Virus genome (UHGV): UHGV-0286546
Length of the DNA stretch: 64,000 nucleotides
Origin: a virus
Reading direction: 5' to 3' (one strand)
Below the pieces are notes generated by a model that was not told where the DNA came from, did not search any database, and saw only the letters and a program-made list of their open reading frames with translations. A program made the translations under genes and the position numbers. Positions 36,716 through 59,893 of the stretch are shown here, one piece after another. Every line of letters starts with the position of its first letter. The stretch's first letter is position 1.

Positions 36716-36728
36716 TCAAAGGATAGGA

Positions 36729-37130: not shown

Positions 37131-37152
37131 AAAAATTGAAAGGAAAAGAAAA

Positions 37153-37380: not shown

Positions 37381-37394
37381 TTTAGGAAGTAAAG

Positions 37395-37643: not shown

Positions 37644-37650
37644 TAAAAAA

Positions 37651-37680
37651 TTGCTTTACAAATAAAAATTTTATGATAAT
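37651..37680 (+). promoter_or_regulatory. sigma70-like promoter TTGCTT-N17-TGATAAT (module copy 1)
   Basis: Near-consensus -35/-10 spacing; homologous copy at 43106..43136; related TTGTTTTAC motifs at 36999 and 39397. Confidence 0.55.
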
Positions 37681-37718
37681 ATAAATATATAAATTAAAAA
37701 AGAAGGGTTCTATAAACT

Positions 37719-37778
37719 ATGATGAAAATGATGTTTAAATATATTAGATTTTATAAACAGCTCAATCGAGGTGTATAA
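37719..37778 (+). CDS. 19-codon leader peptide MMKMMFKYIRFYKQLNRGV (candidate attenuator leader for downstream tRNA cluster)
   Basis: RBS AGAAGGG; first 13 codons are only ATG, AAA, TTT, TAT, ATT, AGA = codons of the downstream phage tRNAs Met/Lys/Phe/Tyr/Ile/Arg(TCT). Confidence 0.5.
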   Translation: MMKMMFKYIRFYKQLNRGV

Positions 37779-37811
37779 TTTTCTATTACGTTTTTATCAG
37801 ATAGAATTTAA

Positions 37812-37850
37812 AAGCCTCGAGAATAAGAATCGAGGCTTTATTATTATAAG
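37812..37850 (+). terminator. intrinsic terminator (AAGCCTCGA-N9-TCGAGGCTT + T-rich) between leader ORF and tRNA-Tyr
   Basis: 9-bp perfect stem; leader 3' end contains identical TCGAGG able to compete for the 5' arm. Confidence 0.6.
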
Positions 37851-37855
37851 TTTTT

Positions 37856-37940
37856 GGTTGGGTCGCATAGCGGCAATTGCTGGAGACTGTAAATCTCTTC
37901 TCTTCGGAGTTCGTAGGTTCGAGTCCTACCCCAACCACCA
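37856..37940 (+). tRNA. tRNA-Tyr (anticodon GTA), class II
   Basis: Acceptor GGTTGGG/CCCAACC, anticodon arm GGAGA-CTGTAAA-TCTCT, long variable arm, T-arm GTAGG-TTCGAGT-CCTAC, CCA. Confidence 0.8.
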
Positions 37941-37945
37941 TTTAT

Positions 37946-38023
37946 AGAGAGGTAACTCAGTTGGTCTAGAGTATTCGCCTGATATGCGAAGAGTCGTGAG
38001 TTCGAGTCTCACCCTCTCTACCA
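37946..38023 (+). tRNA. tRNA-Ile (anticodon GAT)
   Basis: Acceptor AGAGAGG/CCTCTCT, anticodon arm TTCGC-CTGATAT-GCGAA, T-arm GTGAG-TTCGAGT-CTCAC, CCA. Confidence 0.8.
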
Positions 38024-38042
38024 AATTATTTAGGGAGCATTT

Positions 38043-38600
38043 TTGTTGAGTTATAACAGATTAAAAAATTTTAGAAAATTACGAAAACTAGCTATATTAC
38101 AAGGATTTGGCGGAAAATGTCAATGTTGTGGTTATAACAAATGCGTTCAAGCTTTAGAATTTCATCATTTAAATTGTAATGATAAAGAATTTTCTATTAG
38201 TACCATTATGAATAAAAACTGGAACGAAATAAAAAATGAATTAAAAAAATGTATTTGTGTGTGTGCCAATTGTCATAGAGAAATACACAATAATTTATTA
38301 GAAATTGATGTTAATAAACAATATTTTGACGAAAACGCCGTACAAGATTATGAATGTGCTATAAATAAGGTAACAAAATATAGCAAATGTCCAATTTGCG
38401 GAGCATTAAAACCAGAATATAACAAATTTTGTTCTCGAAAATGTGCCGCGAAATCAAGAGATAGAGTAAATTGGGAACAATACGAAAGTTTAGTTTATAT
38501 TATTGATAATAAAATTGAATCTATTAATAGTATTGCTTCTAAATTAAATATTTCTTGGCAAGCTGTAAAGAAAAGATATAAAAAATTAAAATCGCAATAA
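38043..38600 (+). CDS. HNH homing endonuclease (185 aa, TTG start with AGGGAG RBS) inserted inside tRNA operon
   Basis: CQCCGYNKCVQALEFHHLNCN ... CANCHREIHNN = HNH/zinc-binding signature. Confidence 0.7.
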   Translation: MLSYNRLKNFRKLRKLAILQGFGGKCQCCGYNKCVQALEFHHLNCNDKEFSISTIMNKNWNEIKNELKKCICVCANCHREIHNNLLEIDVNKQYFDENAVQDYECAINKVTKYSKCPICGALKPEYNKFCSRKCAAKSRDRVNWEQYESLVYIIDNKIESINSIASKLNISWQAVKKRYKKLKSQ

Positions 38601-38617
38601 AGATTTGAATTATTTAT

Positions 38618-38693
38618 GGTCATGTAGCTCAGTTAGTAGAGCACCAGACTGAAAATCTGGGTGTCGTTGGGGCGGAACCAACCGTGACCACCA
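38618..38693 (+). tRNA. tRNA-Phe (anticodon GAA) with atypical T-loop GGCGGAA instead of TTCGAAT
   Basis: Acceptor GGTCATG/CGTGACC, anticodon arm CCAGA-CTGAAAA-TCTGG, T-stem GTTGG/CCAAC, CCA encoded. Confidence 0.65.
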
Positions 38694-38699
38694 TTTATT

Positions 38700-38775
38700 G
38701 GAAGTATAGCTCAGCCGGTAGAGCAACGAGCTTTTAACTCGTGGGTCATGGGTTCGAATCCCTTTGCTTCCACCA
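38700..38775 (+). tRNA. tRNA-Lys (anticodon TTT)
   Basis: Acceptor GGAAGTA/TGCTTCC, anticodon arm ACGAG-CTTTTAA-CTCGT, T-loop TTCGAAT, CCA. Confidence 0.8.
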
Positions 38776-38783
38776 ATTTTTAT

Positions 38784-38860
38784 GGCGATGTAGTTCAGCC
38801 GGTTAGAACGTATCCCTCATAAGGATAAGGTCACTTGTTCGAGTCAAGTCATCGCTACCA
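38784..38860 (+). tRNA. tRNA-Met or Ile2 (anticodon CAT), second CAT tRNA
   Basis: Acceptor GGCGATG/CATCGCT, anticodon arm TATCC-CTCATAA-GGATA, T-loop TTCGAGT, CCA. Confidence 0.75.
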
Positions 38861-38913
38861 TCTTTTTAAATTTTAAGTTCTAAACATAAAATGATTATTA
38901 CGGAGAAATTTTT

Positions 38914-39390
38914 ATGCCTAGAATTATAAAACATACAGATAAAGTTTTAGTAGAACGCTGTGAAAGTTATTGGTTAAGTCTACGACATGTAAATAGTTAT
39001 TTACCAGGGATAGAAATTTTTAAAAATCCGTCAAAGTCTGATCTTTTAAAAATGTTAAGACAAACATCTACAATACGAGGATTTGCTGATCACGAAGATG
39101 TAATTGTATGGAATGGAGAAGAAGAAATTCATGGTACAATCGAAAAGGCAATACGACAAAAGTATGGTGATGATACTTTTTCAGACGGTAAGCATAGGAT
39201 AGCAAGATTTCAAGTATTTAGAGATAAAAATAACCTTTTAGGATTTGAAGACAATGAGGGTCCCGATACAGATGAGGTAACGAATGAGTTAAAACAAACA
39301 CTTTTGGGTAACCCAAATTTCACTAAACTCTTTTCGAAAGAAGAAATACTAAATGCACAATCTCATCACATTATAGACGATGAAGAATAA
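38914..39390 (+). CDS. hypothetical protein (158 aa); leaderless paralog of 42557..43102
   Basis: Shares blocks LKERCES, TIRG(F/L)AD(H/N)EDVI(V/I)W(N/D)G, NPNFT(K/R)LFS(K/E)EEILNA(Q/D)SH with 42557..43102. Confidence 0.6.
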   Translation: MPRIIKHTDKVLVERCESYWLSLRHVNSYLPGIEIFKNPSKSDLLKMLRQTSTIRGFADHEDVIVWNGEEEIHGTIEKAIRQKYGDDTFSDGKHRIARFQVFRDKNNLLGFEDNEGPDTDEVTNELKQTLLGNPNFTKLFSKEEILNAQSHHIIDDEE

Positions 39391-39452
39391 ATAAAATTGT
39401 TTTACTTTTATTAAAAATAATATATATTTATTTTAAATAGCTTTGCATTAGA

Positions 39453-39529
39453 GGATTCTTAGCTCAATTGGATAGAGCAATAGCCTTCTAAGCTATGGGT
39501 TGCAAGTTCGAATCTTGCAGAATCCGCCA
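39453..39529 (+). tRNA. tRNA-Arg (anticodon TCT)
   Basis: Acceptor GGATTCT/AGAATCC, anticodon arm ATAGC-CTTCTAA-GCTAT, T-arm TTGCAAG-TTCGAAT-CTTGCAG, CCA. Confidence 0.8.
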
Positions 39530-39577
39530 TTTTTTTATTATTTTCTGTTTTACATTTTTTAATTATGGTGTATTTTA

Positions 39578-39855
39578 TTAATATCTGTTATGGCGGAAGT
39601 ATAGACGCTAGATGGAGTGTGGAGAGAGGAAGTGAATCCGGAATAGCTTACCTCGCAGATGAAAAGAATACGGCCGAAAGCGGTGAATAATCGCAATCGG
39701 AGAAACCGTAGAACGGAGGCTCAGACGGGATGCAAACTAACCAATTAAGTCACAATTCGCGAAGTGATGTCATCGAGCCCAAAACAAAGACCACACGTTC
39801 TAAAGGGTTGGTATTTTCTTAATAGTATATCATGGCTTTAGATAACAGATATTAA
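39578..39855 (+). ncRNA. candidate structured non-coding RNA / IR-bounded element: GC-enriched 250-nt ORF-free core flanked by perfect 14-bp inverted repeats TTAATATCTGTTAT / ATAACAGATATTAA
   Basis: No ORF >=60 aa on either strand; GC much higher than flanks; sits in tRNA island directly 3' of tRNA-Arg (T4 encodes stable RNAs C/D in its tRNA region, a precedent). Confidence 0.4.
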
Positions 39856-39887
39856 CAAAGTATATAGTGAAAGGAATGAATAAATAG

Positions 39888-40295
39888 ATGTTGGAAAAAA
39901 TAAAAGAAAAAATTAAAGATTGGTGGTTTTCTAGAGATAGTATTTTTAATTTTTATTTCTCAATATCTTCATCTGGTATTTTTATAAATTTTACTATATT
40001 AGATTACGGTATAGATTTAGATATCACTATTCCGTGTATTCTTCCTAGCTTCTATATTAAAACCTTTTATGAAAAAGAACAAGAAATCTTTACAAATAAA
40101 TTTTGGGGTGAACAGTTTACATTTGTTTCTGATTTGCGTACAGAATTTGGTACAGGTTGGTTTGTTAATCAAGATCATGCTGGTTTTAGTGCTCAAGCGT
40201 CAATTTTAGGTTTTAATTATAGTTATGAATTGAGAGATACAAGGCATTGGGATTACTTTAAAAATTGCTGGAAGAGCTGTTCAGAAGATAAATAA
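39888..40295 (+). CDS. hypothetical protein (135 aa), F/W/Y-rich
   Basis: ORF. Confidence 0.5.
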   Translation: MLEKIKEKIKDWWFSRDSIFNFYFSISSSGIFINFTILDYGIDLDITIPCILPSFYIKTFYEKEQEIFTNKFWGEQFTFVSDLRTEFGTGWFVNQDHAGFSAQASILGFNYSYELRDTRHWDYFKNCWKSCSEDK

Positions 40296-40350
40296 ATAAG
40301 ACATTCTAAAGTTCTAAGTATATATTTGGTATATTTAGGACTTTTTATTT

Positions 40351-41106
40351 ATGAGTAGATTCAGAACAATTGTAGAAAATATCATAAAAACTTTTACAGA
40401 AGACGCGTTCTCAGACAGAGATAGATATAAAGAGGCAATTGATGTATATCTTAATGTATTAGATAAAATGGAACCGTCTCTAAATACAGATAAAATTATT
40501 ACAGATAGCGCAGAATGTGTCAGTTTACAAGTAGATACACCTCATGGTCCTCTAATTGTTAGTGTTTCTCTAGATAAAGATGTACATAATGCCGGTGTAT
40601 ATTATCCAGAATACAACGCTATTGAACTTAACATACACGGTATAATGGATTTGAGTGATGAAACTATAAACATGACAGATCCGATTACCGGTGAAGAAAA
40701 TGTTACAGGTATAAATGCTAAATACTTATATAAAATTTTATCTTCTCGTGCCGTTCAAGATACATTTATTCACGAATATACCCATTTTATAGATGATAAA
40801 ACAAAGTACTCCATGAAAAAGCAAGCAGATACATATAAAAATATAGATTATTTCAATAAACCTTACGAAAGAAATGCGTTTTATATTGCTTGGTTAAATA
40901 AAATCGTTTCATATACCTATAAAAAATATGGTAAAATAATGAAAGAGTTGACACCAGATGAACGATTAAATTTTTTAAGAAATGCTTGGAAAGAAGACGA
41001 AGAATTTGTAGAATATTATAATAAACTTGAACCTGCTGCAAAGAAAAGATTTATGTCAAGATTATATAATTATTTTAGTACTGATTTCTGGTCGGATGCT
41101 GCATAA
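40351..41106 (+). CDS. leader-family member (MSRFRTIVENIIK) with HExxH zinc-metallopeptidase motif (251 aa)
   Basis: DTFIHEYTHFIDD = HEXXH; conserved N-terminal decapeptide. Confidence 0.55.
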   Translation: MSRFRTIVENIIKTFTEDAFSDRDRYKEAIDVYLNVLDKMEPSLNTDKIITDSAECVSLQVDTPHGPLIVSVSLDKDVHNAGVYYPEYNAIELNIHGIMDLSDETINMTDPITGEENVTGINAKYLYKILSSRAVQDTFIHEYTHFIDDKTKYSMKKQADTYKNIDYFNKPYERNAFYIAWLNKIVSYTYKKYGKIMKELTPDERLNFLRNAWKEDEEFVEYYNKLEPAAKKRFMSRLYNYFSTDFWSDAA

Positions 41107-41123
41107 CAAAAGGTAGATTTAAA

Positions 41124-41708
41124 ATGAGTAAAATAAGAACAATTATTGAAAATATCCTTTATGAAGGTGATAAAAAAATATTTGATAAAGAATCTGGATA
41201 CAATAGCTCTAAAGATGAGTTATATATTTATGATTTACTTAAAAAGAAATGGCCAGATGTTAAAATGAGCTATACCAGAGATGATTTTATTAATCCAGAA
41301 ACTCATCGTCATTTTCAATTAGATTTTTACGTACCTTCTGAAAATATGGGAATACAGGTAAATAAACATTGGAAACACGGTAGAAGAGTATATGATCCAT
41401 CTGATCCAAATTGTCAAAAAGATGTTCGTTGGTTAAAAAATAAAGGTGGAGATTTTTATAACAAAGTTTTGCATACCTGGACCGAATTAGATCCTATTAA
41501 ACGAGAAGTTGCAAAGCAAATAGGTATGAAATACGTAGAAATCTTTAATTTAGACGAATTTAATACTTGGTACAATAATCCAGAATTAACATACGAAGAA
41601 TATAAACAGGCTCCAGATTCTTTACAATACGACAGTGATGAATATTTTGCTGCAAAAGCTAATAATCGTGATATTTATGGTAATGATTCCGATCCGTTAG
41701 GTGCATAA
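41124..41708 (+). CDS. leader-family member (MSKIRTIIENILYE), possible nuclease-like fold (194 aa)
   Basis: Conserved N-terminus; FQLDFYVPSENMGIQVNKHWKH loosely PD-(D/E)xK-like. Confidence 0.5.
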   Translation: MSKIRTIIENILYEGDKKIFDKESGYNSSKDELYIYDLLKKKWPDVKMSYTRDDFINPETHRHFQLDFYVPSENMGIQVNKHWKHGRRVYDPSDPNCQKDVRWLKNKGGDFYNKVLHTWTELDPIKREVAKQIGMKYVEIFNLDEFNTWYNNPELTYEEYKQAPDSLQYDSDEYFAAKANNRDIYGNDSDPLGA

Positions 41709-41774
41709 TTACGGTTTTACTTTTATTTTAATATAAATTATTATATATAAAATTTAAAATAGATAGGTATAAGA

Positions 41775-42530
41775 ATGAGTAAGTTTAAAACCATCGTAGA
41801 AAATGCATTATATGAAGTTGGAGCATTGCCTTTTCCAAAAAATATTCAAGTATATGCTAAAAAAGAAAAAGTAAATTTATTTGAAATTAAATATTTACGA
41901 AAAGATGGTAAATTGGATGAACCAGGTGGAATTTGTTATGCTAAAACTGGAATTTGGAAAGATATCCGTGAAAATGAAAATGCTTTTATACGCACGCAAT
42001 TAGATGAAAAATTTAGACCAGATCAAGGCAATTTTAGTAAATATCGTGGTGGTATGATTGTATTTGCTCTGAGTGTCAATACTGTCATTGATAAATTGAA
42101 TTATAATCAATTAGTTGCAGAAATTAAAAAGATTTGGTATACCTTAATAAACAATACCTTTAAAAATAAAATGATTAAAGGTGTAGTTAATTCTATGAAA
42201 AATACTTATGCTAACATTGAAGATGCAGAGATCGGAGGTATTACAATAGGTAATAACTTTAAAGGCATGTATTTTGATGGTAATAAAGTATATAATGATA
42301 AATCAACGAGTTTAGAAATAAATGACATTTCTAGTGAGATGTTGTTATTACTAGCTATTGAAATTTGTAAAGCATTTCGTCAAGATAGCGTTTTAATCAA
42401 AGATTTCAATAAAAATAAATTCTTTTTGTGTGATTCTGAAGAAGTAGAAGGCGAAATTCCAGAAGAAAAAATAAAAAACGCTTCTAAAGACTTAGCAAAC
42501 TTAAAGAATGTAAATACAAAAACAAAATAA
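41775..42530 (+). CDS. leader-family member (MSKFKTIVENALYE), 251 aa hypothetical
   Basis: Conserved N-terminus. Confidence 0.55.
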   Translation: MSKFKTIVENALYEVGALPFPKNIQVYAKKEKVNLFEIKYLRKDGKLDEPGGICYAKTGIWKDIRENENAFIRTQLDEKFRPDQGNFSKYRGGMIVFALSVNTVIDKLNYNQLVAEIKKIWYTLINNTFKNKMIKGVVNSMKNTYANIEDAEIGGITIGNNFKGMYFDGNKVYNDKSTSLEINDISSEMLLLLAIEICKAFRQDSVLIKDFNKNKFFLCDSEEVEGEIPEEKIKNASKDLANLKNVNTKTK

Positions 42531-42556
42531 TGTATGATTTAGCAGAAAGTATAATT

Positions 42557-43102
42557 ATGAGTAGATTTAGAACAATTGTTGAAAATGCTATTGCCAAAGT
42601 AAATAAAAAACTTTTAAAAGAACGTTGTGAATCGCTTTTTATAGCACCAATGAGTCTACATAATGATGAGCGAGAAGTAGTAGAAGTACTTTATAATCCT
42701 TCGAAAGCAGAATTCAATAGAGCATTTAGAGAATGGGGTACTATACGAGGACTTGCTGACAATGAAGATGTAATTATTTGGGATGGATATAAAGCTGTTC
42801 ATGATTCAGTAAAAGAACAATTAGAAAAACAGTATGGTGCAACCTTTCCAACTAATTACGGGACATTATGCAGATTTGAAACAACACGCGAATATCCATT
42901 AATGCTCGAAGATGATACAAAACAGTATAGTCATGGTAAAGAATTAGATCCAGTAAAGCAAACCTTATTTAAAAATCCTAACTTTACACGATTATTTTCA
43001 GAAGAGGAAATACTAAATGCTGATTCTCATAATTTTGCTAATGGAGAATTCGGTGAGTTTCAAAATGATCCAGAAATATTAAAAAAGTTTGGATATGATT
43101 AA
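42557..43102 (+). CDS. leader-family member (start at MSRFRTIVENAIAK; track ORF starts 27 nt earlier), paralog of 38914..39390
   Basis: Family N-terminus at internal ATG; body homologous to 38914..39390. Confidence 0.55.
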   Translation: MSRFRTIVENAIAKVNKKLLKERCESLFIAPMSLHNDEREVVEVLYNPSKAEFNRAFREWGTIRGLADNEDVIIWDGYKAVHDSVKEQLEKQYGATFPTNYGTLCRFETTREYPLMLEDDTKQYSHGKELDPVKQTLFKNPNFTRLFSEEEILNADSHNFANGEFGEFQNDPEILKKFGYD

Positions 43103-43105
43103 AAA

Positions 43106-43136
43106 TTGCTTTACAGATATAAAATTTTATGATATT
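43106..43136 (+). promoter_or_regulatory. sigma70-like promoter TTGCTT-N18-TGATATT (module copy 2)
   Basis: ~90-bp region homologous to 37647..37735. Confidence 0.5.
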
Positions 43137-43173
43137 GTATAAATATAAAATAAAAAAGAGAGTTCTATAAATT

Positions 43174-43239
43174 ATGATTAATACGAATATTTTACATTGT
43201 TGGTGTCATCATTTACTTCACAGAGGTGTTGATGCTTAG
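43174..43239 (+). CDS. 21-codon leader peptide MINTNILHCWCHHLLHRGVDA (candidate attenuator leader for Cys-His-Trp tRNA cluster)
   Basis: RBS AAAAGAGAG; CAT TGT TGG TGT CAT CAT ... CAC = 7 of 21 codons are His/Cys/Trp, exactly the three tRNAs immediately downstream. Confidence 0.5.
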   Translation: MINTNILHCWCHHLLHRGVDA

Positions 43240-43272
43240 TTATACGTGTTAATTCATAAAATTATTAGTTTC

Positions 43273-43308
43273 AAGCCTCTAGGATAATTACTTTCTAGAG
43301 GTTTTTTT
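43273..43308 (+). terminator. intrinsic terminator (AAGCCTCTAG-loop-CTAGAGGTTT + T7) between leader ORF and tRNA-Cys
   Basis: 10-bp stem + TTTTTTT; leader 3' end AGAGGTG can pair with the CCTCT 5' arm. Confidence 0.65.
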
Positions 43309-43313
43309 ATTAT

Positions 43314-43387
43314 GGACTGTTGGTAGAGTGGTTATACGTTAGTCTGCAAAACTAATTACACAAGTTCGAATCTTGTACAGTCCTCCA
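43314..43387 (+). tRNA. tRNA-Cys (anticodon GCA), U73 discriminator
   Basis: Acceptor GGACTGT/ACAGTCC, anticodon arm TTAGT-CTGCAAA-ACTAA, T-arm CAAG-TTCGAAT-CTTG, TCCA end. Confidence 0.75.
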
Positions 43388-43430
43388 ATTTTACGCATAG
43401 AAGTATATATCAATAAAATGGTCTATTCTT

Positions 43431-43506
43431 GTGTGCGTAGCTTAATTGGTAAAGCGTCGGTTTGTGGTACCGAAGGATACGAGTTCGAATCTCGCTGCTC
43501 ACCCCA
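43431..43506 (+). tRNA. tRNA-His (anticodon GTG), C73 discriminator, no encoded G-1
   Basis: Anticodon arm TCGGT-TTGTGGT-ACCGA, D-arm GCTT-AATTGGTA-AAGC, T-arm ACGAG-TTCGAAT-CTCGC, one acceptor mismatch. Confidence 0.7.
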
Positions 43507-43512
43507 CTTTAT

Positions 43513-43586
43513 AGGGACTTAGTTTAATGGTAAAACACTAGTCTCCAAAACTAGATATAGGAGTTCGATTCTCTTAGTCCTTGCCA
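43513..43586 (+). tRNA. tRNA-Trp (anticodon CCA)
   Basis: Acceptor AGGGACT/AGTCCTT, anticodon arm CTAGT-CTCCAAA-ACTAG, T-arm AGGAG-TTCGATT-CTCTT, GCCA end. Confidence 0.75.
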
Positions 43587-49595: not shown

Positions 49596-49803
49596 ATACG
49601 ATTATATGGATAAAGAAATCCTAGCTAATTTGCTATATGAGAGAGATAAAGAAATTGAATCTCTAAAAGATGAATTACGCTCAGAACGTAGAAAAAAGGA
49701 AGATTTAATGTATGAAGTAACAAAATTAAAACCTTATGAACAACGAGCAAAAAACTCTTATGATAATTGGGTTACAAACGCTGAAAGAGAAATATATGAA
49801 TAA
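49588..49803 (+). CDS. small coiled-coil protein (start moved to ATG after GAGGATAGAAAAG RBS)
   Basis: RBS spacing; same RBS module repeated before 49892 and 51437. Confidence 0.5.
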   Translation: MSRYDYMDKEILANLLYERDKEIESLKDELRSERRKKEDLMYEVTKLKPYEQRAKNSYDNWVTNAEREIYE

Positions 49804-49891
49804 AGAAATATTTAAGGTTCAAATAAGCGTGAATAAAAAGTGGGCATCTTGTTTATAATGAAAACCGAAGATTTTACAGAGGATAGAAAAG

Positions 49892-50074
49892 ATGGGATTT
49901 GAAGAAGCATTAAATTATATGAAAGAAGGTAAAAAAGTCTATATCAACGGTGATGATTACGCAATCATTGACGATGAAATAAGAGTTTTCCCAAATAAGT
50001 GGGATGATGATTTTCCAGCTTCGTTGGATAGTGATTTAATTTTATCTGATAATTGGAGCTTATGCGATGAGTAA
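49892..50074 (+). CDS. small hypothetical protein (60 aa)
   Basis: ORF after GAGGATAGAAAAG RBS. Confidence 0.5.
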   Translation: MGFEEALNYMKEGKKVYINGDDYAIIDDEIRVFPNKWDDDFPASLDSDLILSDNWSLCDE

Positions 50075-50210
50075 AGAAAAGGTCTATATCTGTGTCGGTG
50101 AGGGCTACATAAACAACATCAGACAAGGCTTGTGCGGTGGCTATGGAACTGTTAGTAATATCATTCAATGGTTATTTAATCGTTCAAAAAAAGATTGTTT
50201 CCCTGAATAA
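50067..50210 (+). CDS. small Cys/Gly-rich protein (47 aa, below cutoff)
   Basis: ATG overlapping upstream stop; ORF MSKEKVYICVGEGYINNIRQGLCGGYG... Confidence 0.35.
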   Translation: MSKEKVYICVGEGYINNIRQGLCGGYGTVSNIIQWLFNRSKKDCFPE

Positions 50211-50235
50211 ACAGACAAGGAAATAATTAATTATT

Positions 50236-50508
50236 TTGCCAAGAATTACCGGAAAAGGTTTGAAGAAAAGAGCAACGAAAGCGGAGGTTGGAGTATTCAA
50301 AAGGAGAAATCAGATGTGGCAGAAGATTAAAAAAATTTTAAATTTATACAAAAATTGGTTTTTATCAATATTGAAAATTTTATTTTTGATTTGTTTATTA
50401 ATAATGAGTTTAACTGTAATAATATTATCAGCCCCTTTTATTATTTCAACAAAAGTTCAAACGGTTTTACAAAATATGTTTGATAAGATTATAAGGTTTA
50501 TGTGGTGA
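50236..50508 (+). CDS. small membrane protein (90 aa) containing internal MWQKIK module
   Basis: Hydrophobic C-terminal half; shares DNA repeat TGATGTGGCAGAAGATTAAA with next two MWQKIK genes. Confidence 0.45.
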   Translation: MPRITGKGLKKRATKAEVGVFKRRNQMWQKIKKILNLYKNWFLSILKILFLICLLIMSLTVIILSAPFIISTKVQTVLQNMFDKIIRFMW

Positions 50509-50699
50509 TGTGGCAGAAGATTAAATGCTGGCTAAAACAACTATTTTGCAAGCACGAATGGAAGTGTTTAAATTATGACTGCAAATATCGTAAACCGAAT
50601 TGGTGTGGTGACGAGGGTTTAATTCATGGATTACCGTTATGTTGGGCTTGTTATTCTCGTCATGTAGTTTGTAAACATTGTGGAAAGATAAAAAAATGA
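50502..50699 (+). CDS. Cys-rich MWQKIK-family small protein (65 aa)
   Basis: 9 Cys; ends CKHCGKIKK; GTG/ATG start. Confidence 0.5.
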   Translation: MVMWQKIKCWLKQLFCKHEWKCLNYDCKYRKPNWCGDEGLIHGLPLCWACYSRHVVCKHCGKIKK

Positions 50700-51112
50700 G
50701 TGTACAAGCTTGTAGAATAAGAGGATTTGGTTATAAATTTGATTATGAATATCCATTGTTCTCTTTTATAAAAGGTGAAGATGAAGAAGAAATATTAGAC
50801 AACGAATATGACTTCATTGATGTTTTGGGATTGAATTTTAGTTATTATGATATGCATAACACCCCATCTGATAAAAATAAACGCAAATTAATGATTATTA
50901 CAGATGGAATGAATGGAAACTATAAAGCCGTTATGTTTGTAACTCAAGTTATTGATATGTATGATACTCATGGATTTTATGAGCAGGGTTGGGTAAGAGA
51001 TTTTAGAAATGACGACTGGTTGCGAAAATGTGCGAAAAGAGATATTGAAACGTTATTACAGCGAAAATTTGATGAAGAACCTATTGAATTAGATTTAGAA
51101 TATTATAGTTAG
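50696..51112 (+). CDS. hypothetical protein (start at ATG overlapping upstream TGA)
   Basis: ATGA coupling; track TTG start less likely. Confidence 0.5.
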   Translation: MSVQACRIRGFGYKFDYEYPLFSFIKGEDEEEILDNEYDFIDVLGLNFSYYDMHNTPSDKNKRKLMIITDGMNGNYKAVMFVTQVIDMYDTHGFYEQGWVRDFRNDDWLRKCAKRDIETLLQRKFDEEPIELDLEYYS

Positions 51113-51121
51113 GAGATTGTG

Positions 51122-51394
51122 ATGTGGCAGAAGATTAAACGCTGGTTTACTAGACCGTTACTTAAACCTAGAACAGTGTTAGCTAGAGCTGATATAGGCG
51201 GAGAATGGTTTAGATTTAAAGTTCATAAAGGTAACCAAATTTACCTATATTGGTTTGGTTATATGTTTCCCCTCGAGTTGCAAGAAGATGGTTCAACTAT
51301 TTGTAAAAAAGAGGGGATAAGAGGATACAATAAACCATATTATTGGCATTGGATAGGAGATGACGGTAGAGATTGTCGTCAGGCAACGTTGTAA
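51122..51394 (+). CDS. MWQKIK-family small protein (paralog of 50502..50699 with replaced middle)
   Basis: Same 5' module; decayed copy of the CKHCGKIKK-encoding 3' module lies just past its stop (51380..51410). Confidence 0.5.
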   Translation: MWQKIKRWFTRPLLKPRTVLARADIGGEWFRFKVHKGNQIYLYWFGYMFPLELQEDGSTICKKEGIRGYNKPYYWHWIGDDGRDCRQATL

Positions 51395-51436
51395 ATATTG
51401 TGGAAAGATTAAGTAATTTTTATAAGGATAGAAATG

Positions 51437-51874
51437 ATGAGTAAATCAAAACCAGAAGTCGGTGATATATGGGAAATATCTGATCCAAACGCTGGAACTT
51501 ACCGAGCTCTTGTCATTAATACAACCAACTTTAAACATCCCTATTGTATTACAGATGACCTAGAAGGATGTTTTTTATGGGGCTATTCAACTGAAACATA
51601 TATTGGTAACTCTAAAGGTTCAATTTCGGCTTTATTTGAGGTAAAAAACGATAATATTATAAAAGTAGGACAGATTTACGAATTACCAGAAACAAAGGGT
51701 AGAGTTGTTGTTATTAGAGCTCCTGAAACAAAATCTCCATTAGATTGGGTGTATTTTATTTTTGATAATGGATATACCAAAAGATTATGGCAGAAAACAG
51801 TTAAAGAGCTTAAACTCATCACAGAATACCCCACTTGGCAGGAGGCCGTTAATTCAAAGGAGTTTAAAAAATAA
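51437..51874 (+). CDS. hypothetical protein (145 aa)
   Basis: ORF after AAGGATAGAAATG module. Confidence 0.5.
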   Translation: MSKSKPEVGDIWEISDPNAGTYRALVINTTNFKHPYCITDDLEGCFLWGYSTETYIGNSKGSISALFEVKNDNIIKVGQIYELPETKGRVVVIRAPETKSPLDWVYFIFDNGYTKRLWQKTVKELKLITEYPTWQEAVNSKEFKK

Positions 51875-51988
51875 TACAAATGGGGATGTGATAGTTTAGG
51901 CGTTTGAAATACTAGTTAGCCGATACGAAAGAGATTCCACCGGTGCGACTCTGGACATCCCCACTATTTTAACAAAGGAGTTTAAAAA

Positions 51989-52186
51989 ATGATTGATATT
52001 ATAAAAGCCTTCTGTGAAATGATAATAGATACTACTGTCATTACATTACTAGGTATCGTGTGTATTCTTCTATTTGTATGCGCCTTCTTATTTTTTCCAT
52101 TTAAAAGTATAAAAGCTTGGTTCGGTACACAAATATATAAAATCGCAGATACTATGGAATACTACTTAACAAAAACTGAATACTAA
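51989..52186 (+). CDS. small membrane protein (65 aa)
   Basis: Central hydrophobic helix; RBS AAAGGAG. Confidence 0.5.
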   Translation: MIDIIKAFCEMIIDTTVITLLGIVCILLFVCAFLFFPFKSIKAWFGTQIYKIADTMEYYLTKTEY

Positions 52187-52214
52187 AACATAACTACTAC
52201 TGAAAGATAAACAA

Positions 52215-52574
52215 ATGAACACTACTGATAAAACATACCTCAAATCAAGAACTAAAACTGAATATAAACTCCTATCCTATATAACAAAAACACTAAACCT
52301 TAACTCAAAAGACTTTAAAATTAAAAAAGCCAAACGTAAAGATAAACCCTCTATGCTAATGTCTTCCATGCCAATTATAACTAACGTCTACAAATTTCTA
52401 AAAAATAATTATAACCTACCAGAACTTACTATATCTACATCATATTATTCAGATACAAAAAAACTACTAAGAAGATCTCATACTGAATATAATGTCCTAC
52501 ACCTCAAAATAAACAATACAGTACAAGATCCTCAAGACATACTAACCCTACTCCGTATTAAAAACTCTATATAA
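52215..52574 (+). CDS. doubtful ORF (119 aa, K/T/L/N low complexity) inside G-depleted block
   Basis: Open frame may simply reflect absence of G (TAG/TGA impossible) over 52.19-52.92 kb. Confidence 0.25.
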   Translation: MNTTDKTYLKSRTKTEYKLLSYITKTLNLNSKDFKIKKAKRKDKPSMLMSSMPIITNVYKFLKNNYNLPELTISTSYYSDTKKLLRRSHTEYNVLHLKINNTVQDPQDILTLLRIKNSI

Positions 52575-52942
52575 CACACAATCTACCTATAGGGGCCATA
52601 CGTATATTACACAACCTACTACGTTAATAACTACGCTAATAGCTACACTAACTCCAACATGGCCCCTCTACATATCCCATAACCATACATACCACACAAC
52701 TTCACCTACAATACCTACAAGGGGCCTTACTTATACCTATACAACATAATACGGACCTACAACTATACTAGCCTATAAACTAACTTTACCTTTGGCCCCT
52801 CTACGAACTCTACGACTAATACTTCCCTTGCTACCTATGTACCCTGCCTTGCTACTTCTGCCTTTCTTTTATTTATCTTAACACTTCCAACGCTTCCCCT
52901 CCTACTGGATTTTATATTGAGCTTATTATTTATATACGTAAA

Positions 52943-52961
52943 GGCCCCATGGCGGGGGGCC
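52943..52961. repeat. GC-only palindromic hairpin GGCCCC-atggcgg-GGGGCC at junction of G-depleted block and AT-rich iterons
   Basis: 6-bp pure G/C stem in about 25% GC context. Confidence 0.6.
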
Positions 52962-53470
52962 CACCATGAGATAATTAAAATATTTTCAATGGTGAATTTT
53001 TTTTATTTCAATGGTGAAAAAAATTTATTATTATAAATATATAATAAATAATAAAAAAGCTTAATTAAAAAAATTTTAATATAAATATAAAAAATACAAG
53101 GTTAAAATTTTTATTTTCAAGGCTAAAATTATTTATTATAATAAATTATAATTTAAAATAAAATTTTACAAAAGCTTTTTATTTTATATAATATGCAAGT
53201 TTGTAAATTTATTTTAAGAAGTAAATTAAAAGCTAATTAAATATAAAGAGCTTCAAGGCTAACTTTTTTGTTTTCAAGGCTTAAAAAATATAATATAATA
53301 AAAAAATTTTAATTAAAATAATAAAAAGCTTCAAGGTTGAAATTTTTGTTTTCAAGGTTCAAATTATTTATTATTATAAAAATATAATAAATAAAAAATT
53401 ATAAAAGCTTTTTATTTTAATAATAATATGCAAGTTTATAAGTTTATTTATTAAATATAAAAAAAGAATC
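52962..53470. repeat. extreme AT-rich iteron region (direct repeats of ~45 bp AAAAGCTTTTTATTTTA..ATATGCAAGTTT(G/A)TAA(A/G)TTTATTT and TTTTCAAGG(C/T)T(A/T)AAA motifs x6)
   Basis: Repeats visible at 53165/53400 and 53113/53258/53283/53330/53347; >90% A+T. Confidence 0.6.
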
Positions 53471-53623
53471 TAATCGTAATTTGTAAATATATAATACAAT
53501 TACAATTAGCCCTAGGAGAACAGTTGTCTCAGAGCTGTTGTGATTATACTATATATTTCGTTTTGACAGAGATGATATATATAGATTTTGTAAATTAACC
53601 AACCACTATGAAAGGAAAAAGCT

Positions 53624-53959
53624 ATGACAAAGGCTAAAAAAACCATGACTGTTGAAGAAGTACGTAAAGCAAGAGAAGAAAACATCCCGGTAGTATTTAA
53701 TATGATAGCTGCACTGAAGGCCATAGAAGATACGCCTGCCAAGGTTGTTAAAAGCGGTGCTCTTGGTGATTTCAGTAAGGATATTATGGAATTGTTTAGG
53801 CAGGCCGGTACCCCCTTGGCATTAAATCAGGTAAGAGCGGCACTTATAGCAGGGGGTAAGGAAGTTACAGCGAAGCAGGTTGCTGATAGATGCTGGTTGC
53901 TTGCGAAGCGTGGTCAGTTGAAGAAGGGTACTGATAAAGGTGTATATGAGTTAGCTTAA
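53624..53959 (+). CDS. hypothetical basic helical protein (111 aa), first gene of higher-GC block
   Basis: ORF preceded by AACCAACC-N-GAAAGGAAA leader motif. Confidence 0.55.
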   Translation: MTKAKKTMTVEEVRKAREENIPVVFNMIAALKAIEDTPAKVVKSGALGDFSKDIMELFRQAGTPLALNQVRAALIAGGKEVTAKQVADRCWLLAKRGQLKKGTDKGVYELA

Positions 53960-54132
53960 GAGCGCCGCATGGTAATTGATATAAGGGGATGTCGTTAGTG
54001 ATGTCCCCTTTTGTTGTATATGAGTAGTATATATAAACGACGAAGATGAGTGAGCGTCGCTTATACATATTGCTTGATAGACAGAATTAAGTGATATGAA
54101 ACCCAACCGATATTAAATGAAAGGAAAATATT

Positions 54133-54327
54133 ATGAATAAAGTATTTAAGAACGTCGCTTATAATAGATCATTGAAGGTAGTGTCGTTAGGAAATGGCAA
54201 CTATGGTTTGTATGATCGTGAGTTTAAGTTTTGGGTAGCGCAAGGCAGCAAGACTGATATGTTAATGTTGTACAAAAAGATGACGGTTAATGCTTATTGT
54301 GATTCAAAGTTATTGATAGCACAGTGA
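54133..54327 (+). CDS. small hypothetical protein (64 aa)
   Basis: ORF preceded by ACCCAACC motif. Confidence 0.5.
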   Translation: MNKVFKNVAYNRSLKVVSLGNGNYGLYDREFKFWVAQGSKTDMLMLYKKMTVNAYCDSKLLIAQ

Positions 54328-54404
54328 CGTTGTAAGAGTAAGAGCGATGTTAGTAATTAGCGTCGCTCTTGTTTGTATTAACCTTTTATTAGGGAGTAAA
54401 CGAT

Positions 54405-54509
54405 ATGACAATATTAAAAAGTGTTGCTATCGCGTTGGTTGTAGTTAAACCAGGTAGTAAAAGTCAGCAAACGTTGTTAGTTGTTGATGAGAAAGTAAAA
54501 ACCTATTGA
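54405..54509 (+). CDS. very small hydrophobic peptide (34 aa)
   Basis: Strong RBS AGGGAG; MTILKSVAIALVVVKPG... Confidence 0.35.
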   Translation: MTILKSVAIALVVVKPGSKSQQTLLVVDEKVKTY

Positions 54510-54523
54510 TAAGGAACAAAGCA

Positions 54524-54661
54524 ATGAACGATATAAAGGTTGATAAAGATCCTATAGGTTATTTGTGGCGTGTATGGTTATGTAACGTTATCATATTTGT
54601 AACTGATACACAAGCTCGTGCTGAAGAATTTGCTAAACTTTATAGAGGAGCAACACAGTGA
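54524..54661 (+). CDS. small hypothetical protein (45 aa)
   Basis: RBS AAGGAAC; stop overlaps GTG start of next gene. Confidence 0.35.
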   Translation: MNDIKVDKDPIGYLWRVWLCNVIIFVTDTQARAEEFAKLYRGATQ

Positions 54662-54849
54662 GTAAAACCTTGAAAAACCTAGCGTATTTAATCCTAATGA
54701 TGAGTGCGCTTATTTTAATGACAATATGCTTGATGACGCCGGATAAAACGAACGATGGTTATTTTACGGATATTGTTCGTTATTGGACGGATAATCAGTA
54801 TTATTGTGATAATTTTAACCCTAACTACTGTAAAGGAATAAAACCATGA
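54658..54849 (+). CDS. small membrane protein (63 aa, GTG start)
   Basis: RBS AGAGGAG; hydrophobic N-terminus. Confidence 0.5.
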   Translation: MSKTLKNLAYLILMMSALILMTICLMTPDKTNDGYFTDIVRYWTDNQYYCDNFNPNYCKGIKP

Positions 54850-55085
54850 GTGAGTTTATTACAGTAAACACGCTGGAGTTAAAACCAATAGATCCTAATA
54901 CGTTGGGACTTACTTATAAACTCACTGCGTGTGTGGATGTCAATAAAAGGATGGTTGAGTCATTTCGAACAATCAAAGATCCTTTTAATAAGAAGGCATA
55001 CGTTTTATTAACAATGACTTCTGGTAAAGAGTATGTCATTACTGAAGAATCTGAAACCTTACTTAGAGAGGAGATTGAACAATGA
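54846..55085 (+). CDS. hypothetical protein (79 aa)
   Basis: ORF, 4-nt overlap. Confidence 0.5.
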   Translation: MSEFITVNTLELKPIDPNTLGLTYKLTACVDVNKRMVESFRTIKDPFNKKAYVLLTMTSGKEYVITEESETLLREEIEQ

Positions 55086-55294
55086 GTATCGTAAATAAAA
55101 CAGATAGAGATTGGAATTACACAATGCTTGTAAGTACAGTCGATACATTAAAATCTTCACAAGGATTTTATTCAAGATTAGCGGCAGAGCTTGCTGAAAT
55201 GTCTGAGGAAGAAAAAGAGCAGCTTAAAGAACAGTTAGCTAATCAACCTAAGTTTAACGACTCATTAGATGTTGTTATGTTTTTAGAAGGTTAA
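55082..55294 (+). CDS. hypothetical protein (70 aa)
   Basis: ORF, 4-nt overlap. Confidence 0.5.
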   Translation: MSIVNKTDRDWNYTMLVSTVDTLKSSQGFYSRLAAELAEMSEEEKEQLKEQLANQPKFNDSLDVVMFLEG

Positions 55295-55308
55295 CAAAGG
55301 AGGCTACC

Positions 55309-55722
55309 GTGACAATACCTTATGTAACAGGTGACCAACTTAAAAATGCTGCAGACTATCTTGCTTCTACTAAAGAACAAGGTGGATGTTATCATTGGAA
55401 AGTTTGCAGTAAAGACGACAAAGATATTTCTGTTGTCTTAGGTTGGACAGATGGTTTTGATAAAGATGATCCTGATAAAGATAAATATCAAGATGATACT
55501 TGGAGACTTGCTGTTAAAGTAGGTTATCAACCGTCAAATAGTATGATGCAATGTGATTATGATGTAGACTTTAATCTTCCATACTGGCCAGAAAATGGTG
55601 ATGTTTTGGATGAATGTGAACGCGTCATCTATGAAACCACTGACTTTGGAATACTTGCTAAGGATATAAATAGCAATGTAAATTGGGTAATCGAGCATTG
55701 GAAGGAGTTAGGACATGATTAA
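55309..55722 (+). CDS. hypothetical acidic protein (137 aa)
   Basis: ORF with RBS AAGGAGG. Confidence 0.55.
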   Translation: MTIPYVTGDQLKNAADYLASTKEQGGCYHWKVCSKDDKDISVVLGWTDGFDKDDPDKDKYQDDTWRLAVKVGYQPSNSMMQCDYDVDFNLPYWPENGDVLDECERVIYETTDFGILAKDINSNVNWVIEHWKELGHD

Positions 55723-56065
55723 AACACTGTGTGATGTGGAAATAATTATATCTGAAGACAATGAAGTCTCATATAATTATAAAGGAGTACTCTATACCAA
55801 AGAAAAATTTGAAGAGAGATTCCTTCCTAAGTCCAAAAAGTTTGCGTTAATCTATACAGACTATGGTGATACCTGTGATGGTTTAGCTAGAGTGTCTGGG
55901 GTATATGATACATTCAGAGAAGCGCAGATTGAAATGAACAAAGATGTTGAACACTTTAAAAAAGTAAACAGTCAATATCCTGACGAAGCTTCTGATGATA
56001 ACTACATTGTATTAGGTGATACATTTGATGGTTGTCAATGGCAAATCTTAGAAATGGAAGTATGA
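55715..56065 (+). CDS. hypothetical protein (116 aa)
   Basis: ORF. Confidence 0.5.
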   Translation: MIKTLCDVEIIISEDNEVSYNYKGVLYTKEKFEERFLPKSKKFALIYTDYGDTCDGLARVSGVYDTFREAQIEMNKDVEHFKKVNSQYPDEASDDNYIVLGDTFDGCQWQILEMEV

Positions 56066-56128
56066 AACAACTAAAAACTATGAATTATTATGTACTTTTA
56101 ACCTAACCACATTAAAGGAGAATAAATT

Positions 56129-56530
56129 ATGACTAATATGTGTAATGATGATGACCATGAATTTGTTGGCATGGACATGTGCATATATTGTGGTGAATGT
56201 AAACAATTGCTATTACAACCACATTTTTTCAAAGATGCAAATGGTGAAATGAAACCAAAAAGAGGTATTCGTAAATATCAATCAACGAGTCCTGAACCTT
56301 GTGACAAATGTAAAAAGAAGTTTGAAGAGGATGGAGTTGTACCTATGATTGAAGCAACTCGCGGTCATAAAGGTGAGCCTATCTTTGGTAAGAGATACAT
56401 CTTCATGAGAAGAGAAGCTATTCAGGGTCAAGAGTTTATTGACTTTATGAATAAACACGGATACTTAATCTGTGAACCTGAATTTATTGATACAGTGTTA
56501 GCTAAACATAAGGAACAAATGAATGTGTGA
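56129..56530 (+). CDS. Cys-rich zinc-finger-like protein (133 aa)
   Basis: CIYCGEC ... CDKCKKKF. Confidence 0.5.
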   Translation: MTNMCNDDDHEFVGMDMCIYCGECKQLLLQPHFFKDANGEMKPKRGIRKYQSTSPEPCDKCKKKFEEDGVVPMIEATRGHKGEPIFGKRYIFMRREAIQGQEFIDFMNKHGYLICEPEFIDTVLAKHKEQMNV

Positions 56531-56750
56531 TGACATTAAAAAGTTAGAGGAAGAACTCAAGCAAGCTGAATATGATGAAACAGATGCATATGGAACGTAT
56601 ATGTATTATGAATGTGCAGACCGAGGATATGATTATGCAGCTGCCTCAAAAGCGTGTGATGATTATCATAAAGCAAGTCAACGAGTGAAAGACCTCAAAG
56701 AAAAACTTGAAAGCCTACGTAAAAAGGTTAATGGTATTAAAAATGAATGA
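56523..56750 (+). CDS. hypothetical protein (75 aa)
   Basis: ORF. Confidence 0.5.
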   Translation: MCDDIKKLEEELKQAEYDETDAYGTYMYYECADRGYDYAAASKACDDYHKASQRVKDLKEKLESLRKKVNGIKNE

Positions 56751-56805
56751 TACCATGTAAAACATATTATTATGAATCTTCTACACTAACTGAAAGGAGT
56801 GTGAC

Positions 56806-57090
56806 ATGTCTAAGAAACTAAAAGAAGTCTTTACGGTTGATTTAAATACACAGGATGAAGATAATCAAGGTCGTCCTGTATATGTTGTATCGACCAGAAA
56901 AGAAGCTGAAAGGAGAGTGCGAATCCTTAATGAGCAAGAAGCTTGGGGAGTTGAACTTACTGAGGATAAGTTGGATATTAGTGATTGTGATGAGAATTAC
57001 AGAGTAATCAGTTGTGGTCGTCCTCATAGATTTTATAACGTAGGATCATTTGAAGTAGATGGTCCTTTTTATGAAGAAGAAAGTGAATGA
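56806..57090 (+). CDS. hypothetical protein (94 aa)
   Basis: ORF with RBS AAAGGAG. Confidence 0.5.
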   Translation: MSKKLKEVFTVDLNTQDEDNQGRPVYVVSTRKEAERRVRILNEQEAWGVELTEDKLDISDCDENYRVISCGRPHRFYNVGSFEVDGPFYEEESE

Positions 57091-59177: not shown

Positions 59178-59264
59178 TTTTTGTAAAAATTTTTTCAATT
59201 TATTAACTATTTTTTAGTAATTTTATGATATGTATTAACCAACCACAACGAAAGGAAACAAAAA

Positions 59265-59832: not shown

Positions 59833-59893
59833 ATAAATAAGTATTATTATGTTTTTTTGTTTAAACCCAACCGTAGAATGAAAGGAAAGTACA

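Follow-up and report, generated by a model that had tools for sequence, protein, structure and literature searches.

A modular array of paired boxes and promoter-like cassettes in an AT-rich non-coding tract of a jumbo phage

What is the function of some 530 bp of gene-less, repeat-built DNA of ~89% A+T in the genome of a large phage? The question is posed by positions 52971–53500 of a 64,000-nt stretch (the window, to which all coordinates refer) of the virus genome UHGV-0286546, which has a G+C content of ~31% and comes from a previously uncharacterised jumbo phage of ~243 kb. A first-pass annotation had read the tract as a candidate replication origin or as genome ends joined in an assembly. 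What we observe is a conserved, modular and strand-polar array, in which paired boxes stand in promoter register and of which one strain lacks exactly one module. Our preferred interpretation, held with about even confidence on the basis of sequence comparison, is that the array may be a stacked, regulator-controlled promoter region that heads a conserved operon. Outside the T4 and phiKZ groups, the origins and early regulatory circuits of jumbo phages are essentially unmapped, and the region offers a delimited non-coding target of 0.7 kb, conserved family-wide, in which a boundary motif and four cassettes are combined with a candidate regulator gene and a terminator.

Composition and modular anatomy of the array

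The tract had originally been described as more than 500 bp of over 90% A+T. It is real and has no counterpart in the 64 kb, the figure alone being slightly high. In 50-nt bins from 53000 to 53499 the A+T content is 76–94%, mostly 86–94%, and a scan of the window at a threshold of 84% A+T (150-nt windows) returned 52956–53529 as the only tract longer than 200 bp. It is the longest and most AT-rich non-coding stretch of the window: no open reading frame (ORF) of at least 40 amino acids lies inside 52971–53500, and a single ORF of 39 amino acids overlaps the left edge only.

Two families of direct repeats had been noted, and both are far beyond chance expectation. The long repeat ATATGCAAGTTTRTAARTTTATTT has exactly two copies (at 53191 and 53426, where 0.01 would be expected) and forms, with AAAAGCTTTTTATTTTA upstream of it, a unit of ~45–48 nt. 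The short repeat TTCAAGGYT occurs nine times in the window, with five copies in 53116–53359 (1.45 expected; none of 100 shuffled sequences reached nine). Both families are parts of one composite module that is present in four copies, W0 to W3. Each module starts with two boxes of ~12 bp, CAAGGYT or CAATGGTG in type and all on the + strand (TTCAATGGTGAA twice in W0, YTWCAAGGYTNAA in W1–W3). Once ACAAGGTT (53097) and the two copies of TTCAATGGTGAA (52985 and 53007) are counted, there are four box pairs whose members are 21–22 bp apart. In all, ten CAAGGYT-type boxes share the same orientation, and the pattern CAAG[GT][CT]T is found eight times on the + strand of the array and never on the - strand. 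The distances between pairs (57, 58, 78 and 88 bp) are out of helical phase, phasing being confined to the members of a pair. A description of the box as a palindrome, TTCA-N4-TGAA, was rejected, as it fits only three of the ten boxes and its count in the window is at chance level.

Exactly 12 nt past the second box of a pair there is always a hexamer resembling a -10 element (TATTAT, TATAAT, TATAAT and TATTAT in W0 to W3), a register that coincides with the TTTTCA-17-TATAAT matches of a consensus scan. Past each of these elements the sequence is nearly pure A/T for 40–100 nt. Module W0 (52974–53083; + strand, as are the others) has its second box at 53007, 22 bp from the first, and TATTAT at 53029–53034. 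Module W1, a long form (53084–53240), has boxes at 53095–53106 and 53116–53127 with TTTTCA-17-TATAAT at 53114–53142, and continues with a 12-bp AT hairpin (53151–53189) and with unit B1, in which TTTACA-16-TATAAT (53165–53192; an 11/12 match) leads into ATATGCAAGTTTGTAAATTTATTT (53191–53214). A TTTACA-N17-TATAAT sequence is also located upstream of the gene at 46432. The short form W2 (53241–53318) consists of boxes at 53252 and 53273 with TTTTCA-17-TATAAT at 53271–53299, while W3 (53319–53466) is again a long form, with boxes at 53330 (the palindromic TTCAAGGTTGAA) and 53351, TTTTCA-17-TATTAT at 53349–53377 and unit B2 at 53404–53449. W1 and W3 constitute a 126-nt repeat (D3) with 75% identity, their extension being the ~45-nt repeat. 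Each of W0–W3 runs into the next cassette and not into an ORF, and no terminators were found between the cassettes.

A promoter-like region downstream of the repeats, also part of the first-pass description, could be confirmed. It contains ATCGTAA-N10-TATAAT (53473–53495) and TTGTCT-17-TACTAT (53524–53552), followed by the inverted repeat CTATATAT...ATATATAG (53549–53584) and by the leader TTAACCAACCAC with the Shine-Dalgarno sequence GAAAGGA (53610–53616), all on the + strand. Then follows the first gene of a conserved downstream block (53624–53959, + strand), which codes for a protein of 111 amino acids with a single, generic winged helix-turn-helix (wHTH) of repressor-like fold at its C-terminus. 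As an intrinsic terminator with a 12-bp stem and a T run (53983–54010, + strand) is located directly behind it, the winged-helix gene is near-monocistronic. A recurrent 5' leader, TTAACC(A/T)AACCAC with GAAAGGA or AAAGGAG behind it, is found ahead of several small genes (53588–53616, 56096–56128 and 59243–59264), and the leader also stands before the winged-helix gene of the related contig L023.

Comparison of eight strains, 89–100% identical over a 1.8-kb query, showed that the array is conserved at the level of coding DNA. Variable columns amount to 4.3% in the array, 5.1% in the winged-helix gene, 6–11% in other ORFs and 13.4% in the non-coding G-poor DNA to the left of the array, and fall to 1.9% in 53524–53623. 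In one strain (L002), exactly one module (W2) is missing.

The same layout in divergent relatives

The window and its relatives belong to a phage family with genomes of ~240 kb that occurs in gut and rumen. An exact-protein look-up with the gene to the right of the array retrieved the locus from many gut metagenome assemblies (57 index blocks), among them three contigs of 242,967, 243,127 and 243,149 nt and a 480-kb scaffold in which the locus occurs twice, 237 kb apart. Through homologs of the 111-residue protein (51–65% identical), 15 more contigs of gut and rumen metagenomes were reached, one of 241 kb and one of 110 kb among them. All of them show the same order of elements: a G-poor block, a boundary motif with a GC island, an AT tract, TACTATAT with an inverted repeat and a Shine-Dalgarno sequence, and the homologous gene. 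The right-end elements of the window thus have counterparts in TACTATAT, CTATATTAG..CTAATATAG and TTGTCAAC, and the terminator behind the winged-helix gene recurs as well. The AT tract of the relatives measures 250–450 bp with 80–100% A+T. The layout is retained down to a protein identity of 33% (overall range 33–65%). The repeats are thus kept: an equivalent array is present in every relative, and the first-pass proposal is not refuted on this count.

The left boundary of the array is formed by a bipartite motif (52901–52961, + strand) that consists of CCTACTGG (52901–52908) and ACGTAAAGGCCCC (52936–52948), the latter running into the GC hairpin GGCCCC-ATGGCGG-GGGGCC (52943–52961, + strand). 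The 35 nt which cover the second half-motif and the hairpin (52936–52970) carry no substitution in the eight strains, with one column showing a 1-nt indel, and ACGTAAAGGCC occurs only once in the window. Across lineages with protein identities of 33–61%, the motif reads CCTACTGR followed by AYRYRTAWAAGGCCCC, with 33–34 nt from CTACTG to AAGGCCCC. It is found to the left of the array, with constant internal spacing, in every divergent relative, and adjoins a nearly pure G+C island of 20–35 nt; contigs with the motif include L019, L020, L021, L022, L023, L024, L025, L026, L027, L031 and L032. In some lineages the second half of the motif is present in two or three copies. A conserved RNA fold for the motif region was rejected (0 pairs). 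A pattern scan with the motif only yielded two further related contigs from IMG/VR; another match (L030) was due to chance and lies in GC-rich collagen-like repeats. The contig L031 (124.6 kb, from IMG/VR), retrieved by the DNA motif alone, has the motif, the GC island, an AT array of ~520 bp with ATCCACTGAA boxes, and the terminator, and its protein homolog is just 33% identical (hhalign probability 96.9%). The linkage of these elements is therefore not an artefact of a protein-based search.

Each lineage has its own strand-specific boxes: AACCTAA, CTCGTAA, TCCCGTA, CAAGGTT/CCTTGTAG, AACTTGT, CTAGTTT (8 on one strand vs 0 on the other) and TTGAGAT. The eight CTAGTTT boxes make up the array of L022, many of them 11 bp apart. 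In nine contigs (L016, L018, L019, L020, L021, L022, L024, L026 and L027), boxes on the gene strand have a TATAAT-like hexamer behind them, separated from the box by exactly 11 nt in 29 cases; inverted copies of the boxes in the same contigs are devoid of a -10 element. The sequence TGnTATAAT occurs 16 times on the gene strand of the relatives and once on the other. The strand bias of plain TATAAT was discarded as evidence; it is uninformative in the window lineage (9 vs 8) because the AT repeats hold TATAAT and its complement in similar numbers, and in the L012/L023 lineage TATAAT lies within the arms of AT hairpins.

The same box-N11-TATAAT arrangement precedes small genes in the flanks, where it is followed by ATAAATAT, a Shine-Dalgarno sequence and ATG. 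In 11 kb of L021 all 11 such gene-proximal units lie on the + strand, as do all six in L020. In the relatives, the units of the array are thus identical to the promoter class that fronts ordinary genes, and their arrays consist of promoters of the phage's own class stacked without genes. The window has a sole copy of the box-plus-TATAAT class which dominates the arrays and early regions of the relatives, namely ATCGTAA-N10-TATAAT.

Another feature of the relatives is a hairpin of 13–18 bp with an A-rich tail, located 3–15 nt (mostly 3–8) past every gene-less promoter in six contigs (L016, L018, L020, L021, L024 and L026; for example at 887–927, 988–1028 and 1111–1152 of L024). The outer stem varies with covariation, there is an A.A mismatch, and the inner stem, AARAUAAA/UUUAUUUU with a recurrent G.U pair, is conserved. 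RNAalifold predicts 15 pairs from 17 copies, 9–10 of them with compensatory changes; pairing extends to 95.7% of cells (74% in shuffles and 44–52% in slid controls), and the covariation score of 0.623 (vs 0.196) was not reached in any of 500 shuffles. Covariance-model scores of 31–51 bits for the gene strand, as opposed to no more than 23 for its complement, show together with the G.U pair that the gene-sense strand is the one that folds. The hairpin matched no Rfam family and represents a new motif supported by covariation. Gene-proximal promoters of the box-N11-TATAAT class lack it. As the model finds nothing in the window array (scores of up to 15 bits, with little difference between the strands), the hairpin cannot be claimed for the window lineage.

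The lineage of L023 (5030–5500; also L012, L025 and L028) shows a further variation, two ORF-less units between the GC island and the array. Each of them ends in an intrinsic terminator, which is followed by another copy of GTAAAGGCC, and they are candidate small RNA genes. Units of this type are absent from the window lineage. The promoter region of the first unit in L023 (AGGAG..TGTCT..TTATAAT) is homologous to window positions 53511–53555, which lie on the other side of the array.

Transcription control and competing explanations

Since the repeats resolve into co-directional promoter-like cassettes, transcription control has to be considered first. In the stacked promoter region that we favour, a sigma-70-type RNA polymerase would initiate rightward transcription from as many as six or seven promoters in close succession, four of the type TTTTCAAGGYT-N12-TATWAT plus TTTACA-16-TATAAT, ATCGTAA-N10-TATAAT and TTGTCT-17-TACTAT. 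The two CAAGGYT boxes of a pair, placed at about -30 and -52 with two helical turns between them, would be bound by a sequence-specific protein that switches these promoters on or off. A candidate for this protein is the adjacent winged-helix protein, which would then act on its own expression; another is a factor like MotA whose gene lies elsewhere. On the left, the GC island and the G-poor, C-rich block may insulate the stack from upstream transcription. Promoter firing, the identity of the box binder and the insulating role are what we infer from the arrangement. The middle promoters of T4 combine a MotA box at -30 with a sigma-70 -10 element (PMC3016281), and the boxes of the relatives, which end 11–12 nt before the -10 element, match the placement of the MotA box.

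Several points weigh against a promoter stack. The number of sigma-70-like matches in this DNA of ~90% A+T does not exceed that in shuffled sequences (16 vs 13.4 ± 3.4), and the promoter calls in the window consequently draw on the repeated register and on the analogy with the relatives. CAAGGYT-type units occur nowhere else in the window and do not represent a general promoter class there, unlike the units of L021 and L020. A gene-less stack of promoters is an unusual means to drive one small gene. No co-variation was found between recognition helix and boxes, the helix being nearly invariant within protein groups whose boxes differ, so the winged-helix protein may not be the reader of the boxes. 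In addition, the sequence would look no different if the array were an origin of the T4 oriF/oriG type. If the array should prove to be just a strong, regulated promoter region, its value would lie in annotation and it would otherwise be ordinary.

The closest parallel to the cassettes is provided by the promoter/stem-loop (PeSL) cassettes of T4-type phages, which bound indels and are associated with hyperplastic regions (Arbiol et al. 2010, PMC2839356; Comeau et al. 2014, PMC4122927). PeSLs are composite units of ~70–150 nt in which a sigma-70-like promoter has AT-rich DNA upstream of it and a stem-loop beside it. The cassettes here, with the stem-loop seen in relatives, would be built alike, and the promoter of the T4/PST pair (TTTACW-N17-TAYWAT) resembles the TTTACA-16/17-TATAAT found here. 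They also share a hyperplastic, ORFan-rich setting, with the loss of one module in L002 and a 5.7-kb segment between 29-nt repeats in the present case. PeSLs, however, are single and intergenic and end in a Shine-Dalgarno sequence and ATG, whereas four to six gene-less copies are stacked here at one conserved place. The stems of PeSLs are G/C tracts, while those of the array are AT-rich and a stem-loop is not demonstrable in the window; the paired specific boxes of each unit have no counterpart in PeSLs; and promoter and terminator activity has been measured for PeSLs, while the promoters of the window cassettes are predicted. On this comparison we regard the array as related in kind to PeSL cassettes and as differing in being kept as a gene-less stack. 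Promoter/stem-loop cassettes, which are scattered in T4-type phages, can apparently persist in this form. The early region of T7 has several strong, co-directional host-type promoters (A1, A2 and A3) within ~500 bp, without intervening genes and followed by the first early gene, and the predicted stack resembles it in this. The T7 promoters, though, lie beside a defined genome end, the left one, while no end could be placed here, and they are without paired specific boxes.

A broader alternative is that the stack, the CCTACTGR...AAGGCCCC motif and the GC island together form a dedicated non-coding control island that acts via nucleic-acid structure and not simply by driving a gene, either as an R-loop-primed origin of multiple units or as a battery of hairpin RNAs. 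We put this forward tentatively, as a possibility that is rather unlikely. An origin of this kind would be the first one defined for such phages, and hairpin RNAs might serve as decoys or sponges during takeover.

A replication origin, as proposed in the first-pass annotation, would follow one of two designs: a promoter with an unwinding element, primed from an R-loop processed by RNase H, or an iteron type in which an initiator bound to the ten boxes melts the AT-rich DNA. At oriF and oriG of T4, a promoter made up of a factor box at -30 and a sigma-70 -10 element has an A+T-rich unwinding element downstream, and synthesis is primed there by an R-loop that RNase H processes (Kreuzer & Brister 2010, PMC3016281). 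The same phage has 12-nt iterons of undefined role in oriE (PMC3016281). Because T4 has both types of architecture, an origin stays a plausible and serious rival, although we consider it rather unlikely. A box with TATAAT, followed by nearly pure A/T in DNA of ~90% A+T, corresponds in pattern to the minimal oriF/oriG architecture, and the length and composition of the tract suit an unwinding element. Direct repeats paired two helical turns apart, the adjoining small, early-type gene for a DNA-binding protein, the coding-level conservation and the presence of the array in all relatives also fit, as do a phage RNase H gene (30063–30548), which is not specific for this purpose, and a contractile tail sheath gene (9383–11344, - strand) whose product is distantly T4-like (only ~25% identity to T4-like sheaths). 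On the other hand, neither a MotA or AsiA homolog nor any sequence similarity to T4 origins was identified, those origins are single units and not stacks of four to seven, and the relatives use the units of the array as ordinary gene promoters. The more active T4 origins lie near switches of the transcribed strand or shifts in composition. The array does part a low-GC block from a higher-GC block, as first noted (27–29% G+C to the left, 34–39% to the right), yet both blocks are co-directional and the GC skew does not change. No inflection is seen at the site, where an origin had been expected to show one: the skew is +0.24 to +0.35 before the array and +0.2 to +0.28 after it, with a dip only in the G-depleted block, which is also the single interruption of the monotonic rise in cumulative skew from 46–64 kb (a weak test, as phage skew follows transcription and the window covers 64 of ~243 kb). 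Sign switches in the window occur only where the transcribed strand switches (near 6, 21.5 and 43–46 kb). Iteron origins such as lambda ori and the oriV of RK2, R6K and RSF1010 resemble the locus in their ~12-bp repeats of the same orientation, AT tract, GC-rich patch and nearby winged-helix gene. Classical iterons, however, are contiguous, 17–22 bp apart and phased throughout, whereas the box pairs are not in mutual phase. No Rep or O-type initiator was recognised, and the adjacent protein has no part that resembles a helicase loader. DnaA boxes (TTATCCACA, at most one mismatch) are absent from 49613–56961, with a window total at chance level, and the replication genes of the window, two helicases of which one is DnaB-like, are 30 kb away. 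What stands of the original architectural argument is that the locus is a functional, repeat-built non-coding element of a protein-binding type; none of the tests points specifically to an origin or a terminus.

The remaining explanations appear weaker still. If the array were a set of genes for short, hairpin-led, trans-acting RNAs (decoy, sponge or protein-binding), this would account for the covarying hairpin behind every gene-less promoter of six relatives, for its folding on the gene-sense strand, for its absence both from Rfam and from gene-proximal promoters, and for the terminator-ended ORF-less units beside the array in the L023 lineage. We nevertheless regard this as improbable for the window, where the covariance model stays at or below 15 bits, hairpins are at the level of shuffles (10 observed vs 6.3 ± 2.3), separating terminators are lacking and the close strains differ too little to reveal covariation. 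An Rfam search (gathering score or E ≤ 5) returned only tRNAs in the window, two chance-level hits in 51800–53700 and none in ten related loci. A genome terminus or packaging site, with the GC island as a cos or pac site or the boundary of a terminal repeat and early promoters just inside the entering end as in T7 A1–A3, is highly improbable. An island of 20–35 nt with a strictly conserved motif does resemble GC-rich cos sites in a genome of 30% GC, the tandem promoters adjoin it, several short contigs break within the array and L032 (IMG/VR, 227,383 nt) ends ~250 nt past its second AAGGGCC motif copy in AT-rich DNA. The latter end is probably an assembly break in low-complexity sequence, and breaks inside the array are expected for low-complexity repeats. 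Among ~25 contigs there is none with its end at the GC island, at least seven samples gave long contigs that read through the site, and joined genome ends thus receive no support. The three contigs of ~243 kb break elsewhere (at window positions ~24.6, ~29.3 and ~59.9 kb) which, together with the twofold locus in the 480-kb scaffold, indicates that the map is circular or permuted. The genome of T4, too, has no fixed ends, being circularly permuted (PMC3016281). No terminase was seen among those of the small ORFs within ~8–10 kb on either side that were scanned. Finally, the array might be a centromere-like nucleoprotein site bound by the winged-helix protein in the style of parC or tubC, or a functionless scar of PeSL recombination; taken together, we give these two little credence. 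In the parC-ParR system of R1 and in tubC-TubR of pBtoxis, direct repeats of 11–12 bp likewise surround a promoter, and the gene downstream codes for a small DNA-binding adaptor. With ~100 amino acids, the winged-helix protein TubR is similar in size to the one encoded here, and the 11-bp spacing of many of the CTAGTTT boxes in L022 would suit such a site. A cytomotive NTPase gene is not adjacent, however: ParA, ParM and TubZ-like NTPases are absent nearby, the ORFs downstream (64, 51, 63, 79, 70 and 137 amino acids) gave no Pfam hits, a terminator follows the wHTH gene, and the element belongs to an apparently lytic jumbo phage of the myovirus type, as judged from its tail sheath gene. The one-module loss in L002 and the hyperplastic flanks would suit a scar, as cassettes can be left behind by PeSL-mediated excision (PMC2839356), whereas conservation at the coding level is not expected of a scar, nor is a multi-copy stack kept in place in lineages down to 33% protein identity.

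The G-depleted block and the genomic surroundings

To the left of the boundary motif lies a C/A-rich block of ~750 nt (52190–52935, + strand) with only 1–5 G per 50 nt. It includes an ORF of 119 amino acids (52215–52574) that encodes almost no Gly, Ala, Val or Glu and whose frame is kept among strains. The 360 non-coding nt contain tandem repeats of 12 nt (TRF period 12 nt), vary in copy number between strains and show many indels besides their variable columns. The tetramer CTAC occurs 25 times on the + strand and never on the - strand of 52000–52999, compared with a window-wide + strand rate of 0.43 per 200 nt. A structured RNA was rejected, as the fold is not above that of shuffled sequences (z = -0.07). 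Located upstream of the array, the block might act as an insulator or a rut-like leader; Rho-utilisation (rut) sites are likewise C-rich, G-poor and unstructured. Equivalent G-poor blocks are present in relatives, and in L020 and L021 the block begins just past a promoter.

Compared with 50,697 phage records by megablast and blastn, the region gave no match to known phages, an IMG/VR search with the two flanking proteins gave nothing useful (one locus, L001, was dropped as distant and non-syntenic), an exact IMG/VR scan for the box-pair pattern had 0 matches, and nothing relevant was found in the literature on iteron origins of jumbo phages or on jumbo phages of Succinivibrionaceae. One related contig resides in a metagenome-assembled genome labelled Succinivibrionaceae, which by binning evidence only makes this family a candidate host.

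Some features elsewhere in the window deserve mention. A set of three proteins of the S-adenosylmethionine-lyase family adjoins the RNase H gene (30545–31123, 31592–32329 and 41775–42530, and also 32331–32954); two paralogs score above the Pfam cut-off and the third below it, and two ORFs of the set also match DUF3293, one just below and one above the cut-off. This family is of an anti-restriction type, as exemplified by the SAMase of T3. There are 20 tRNA genes in three clusters (28663–43586), including two adjacent, long ones (88–94 nt) for which ARAGORN reports unusual anticodons, tRNA-Ser(ACT) at 34563 and tRNA-Ile(TAT) at 34658.

The flanks of the array are hyperplastic among close strains, with ORF-sized indels at 49.2–51.4, 54.85–55.08 and 57.1–57.3 kb. 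A 29-nt direct repeat in the start regions of genes (54099–54127 and 59863–59891) bounds a block of 5.7 kb with ~20 small ORFs, and this block is absent from one of the two locus copies in the 480-kb scaffold (L004 vs L010). One of the 243-kb contigs ends 40 nt past the second copy of this repeat.

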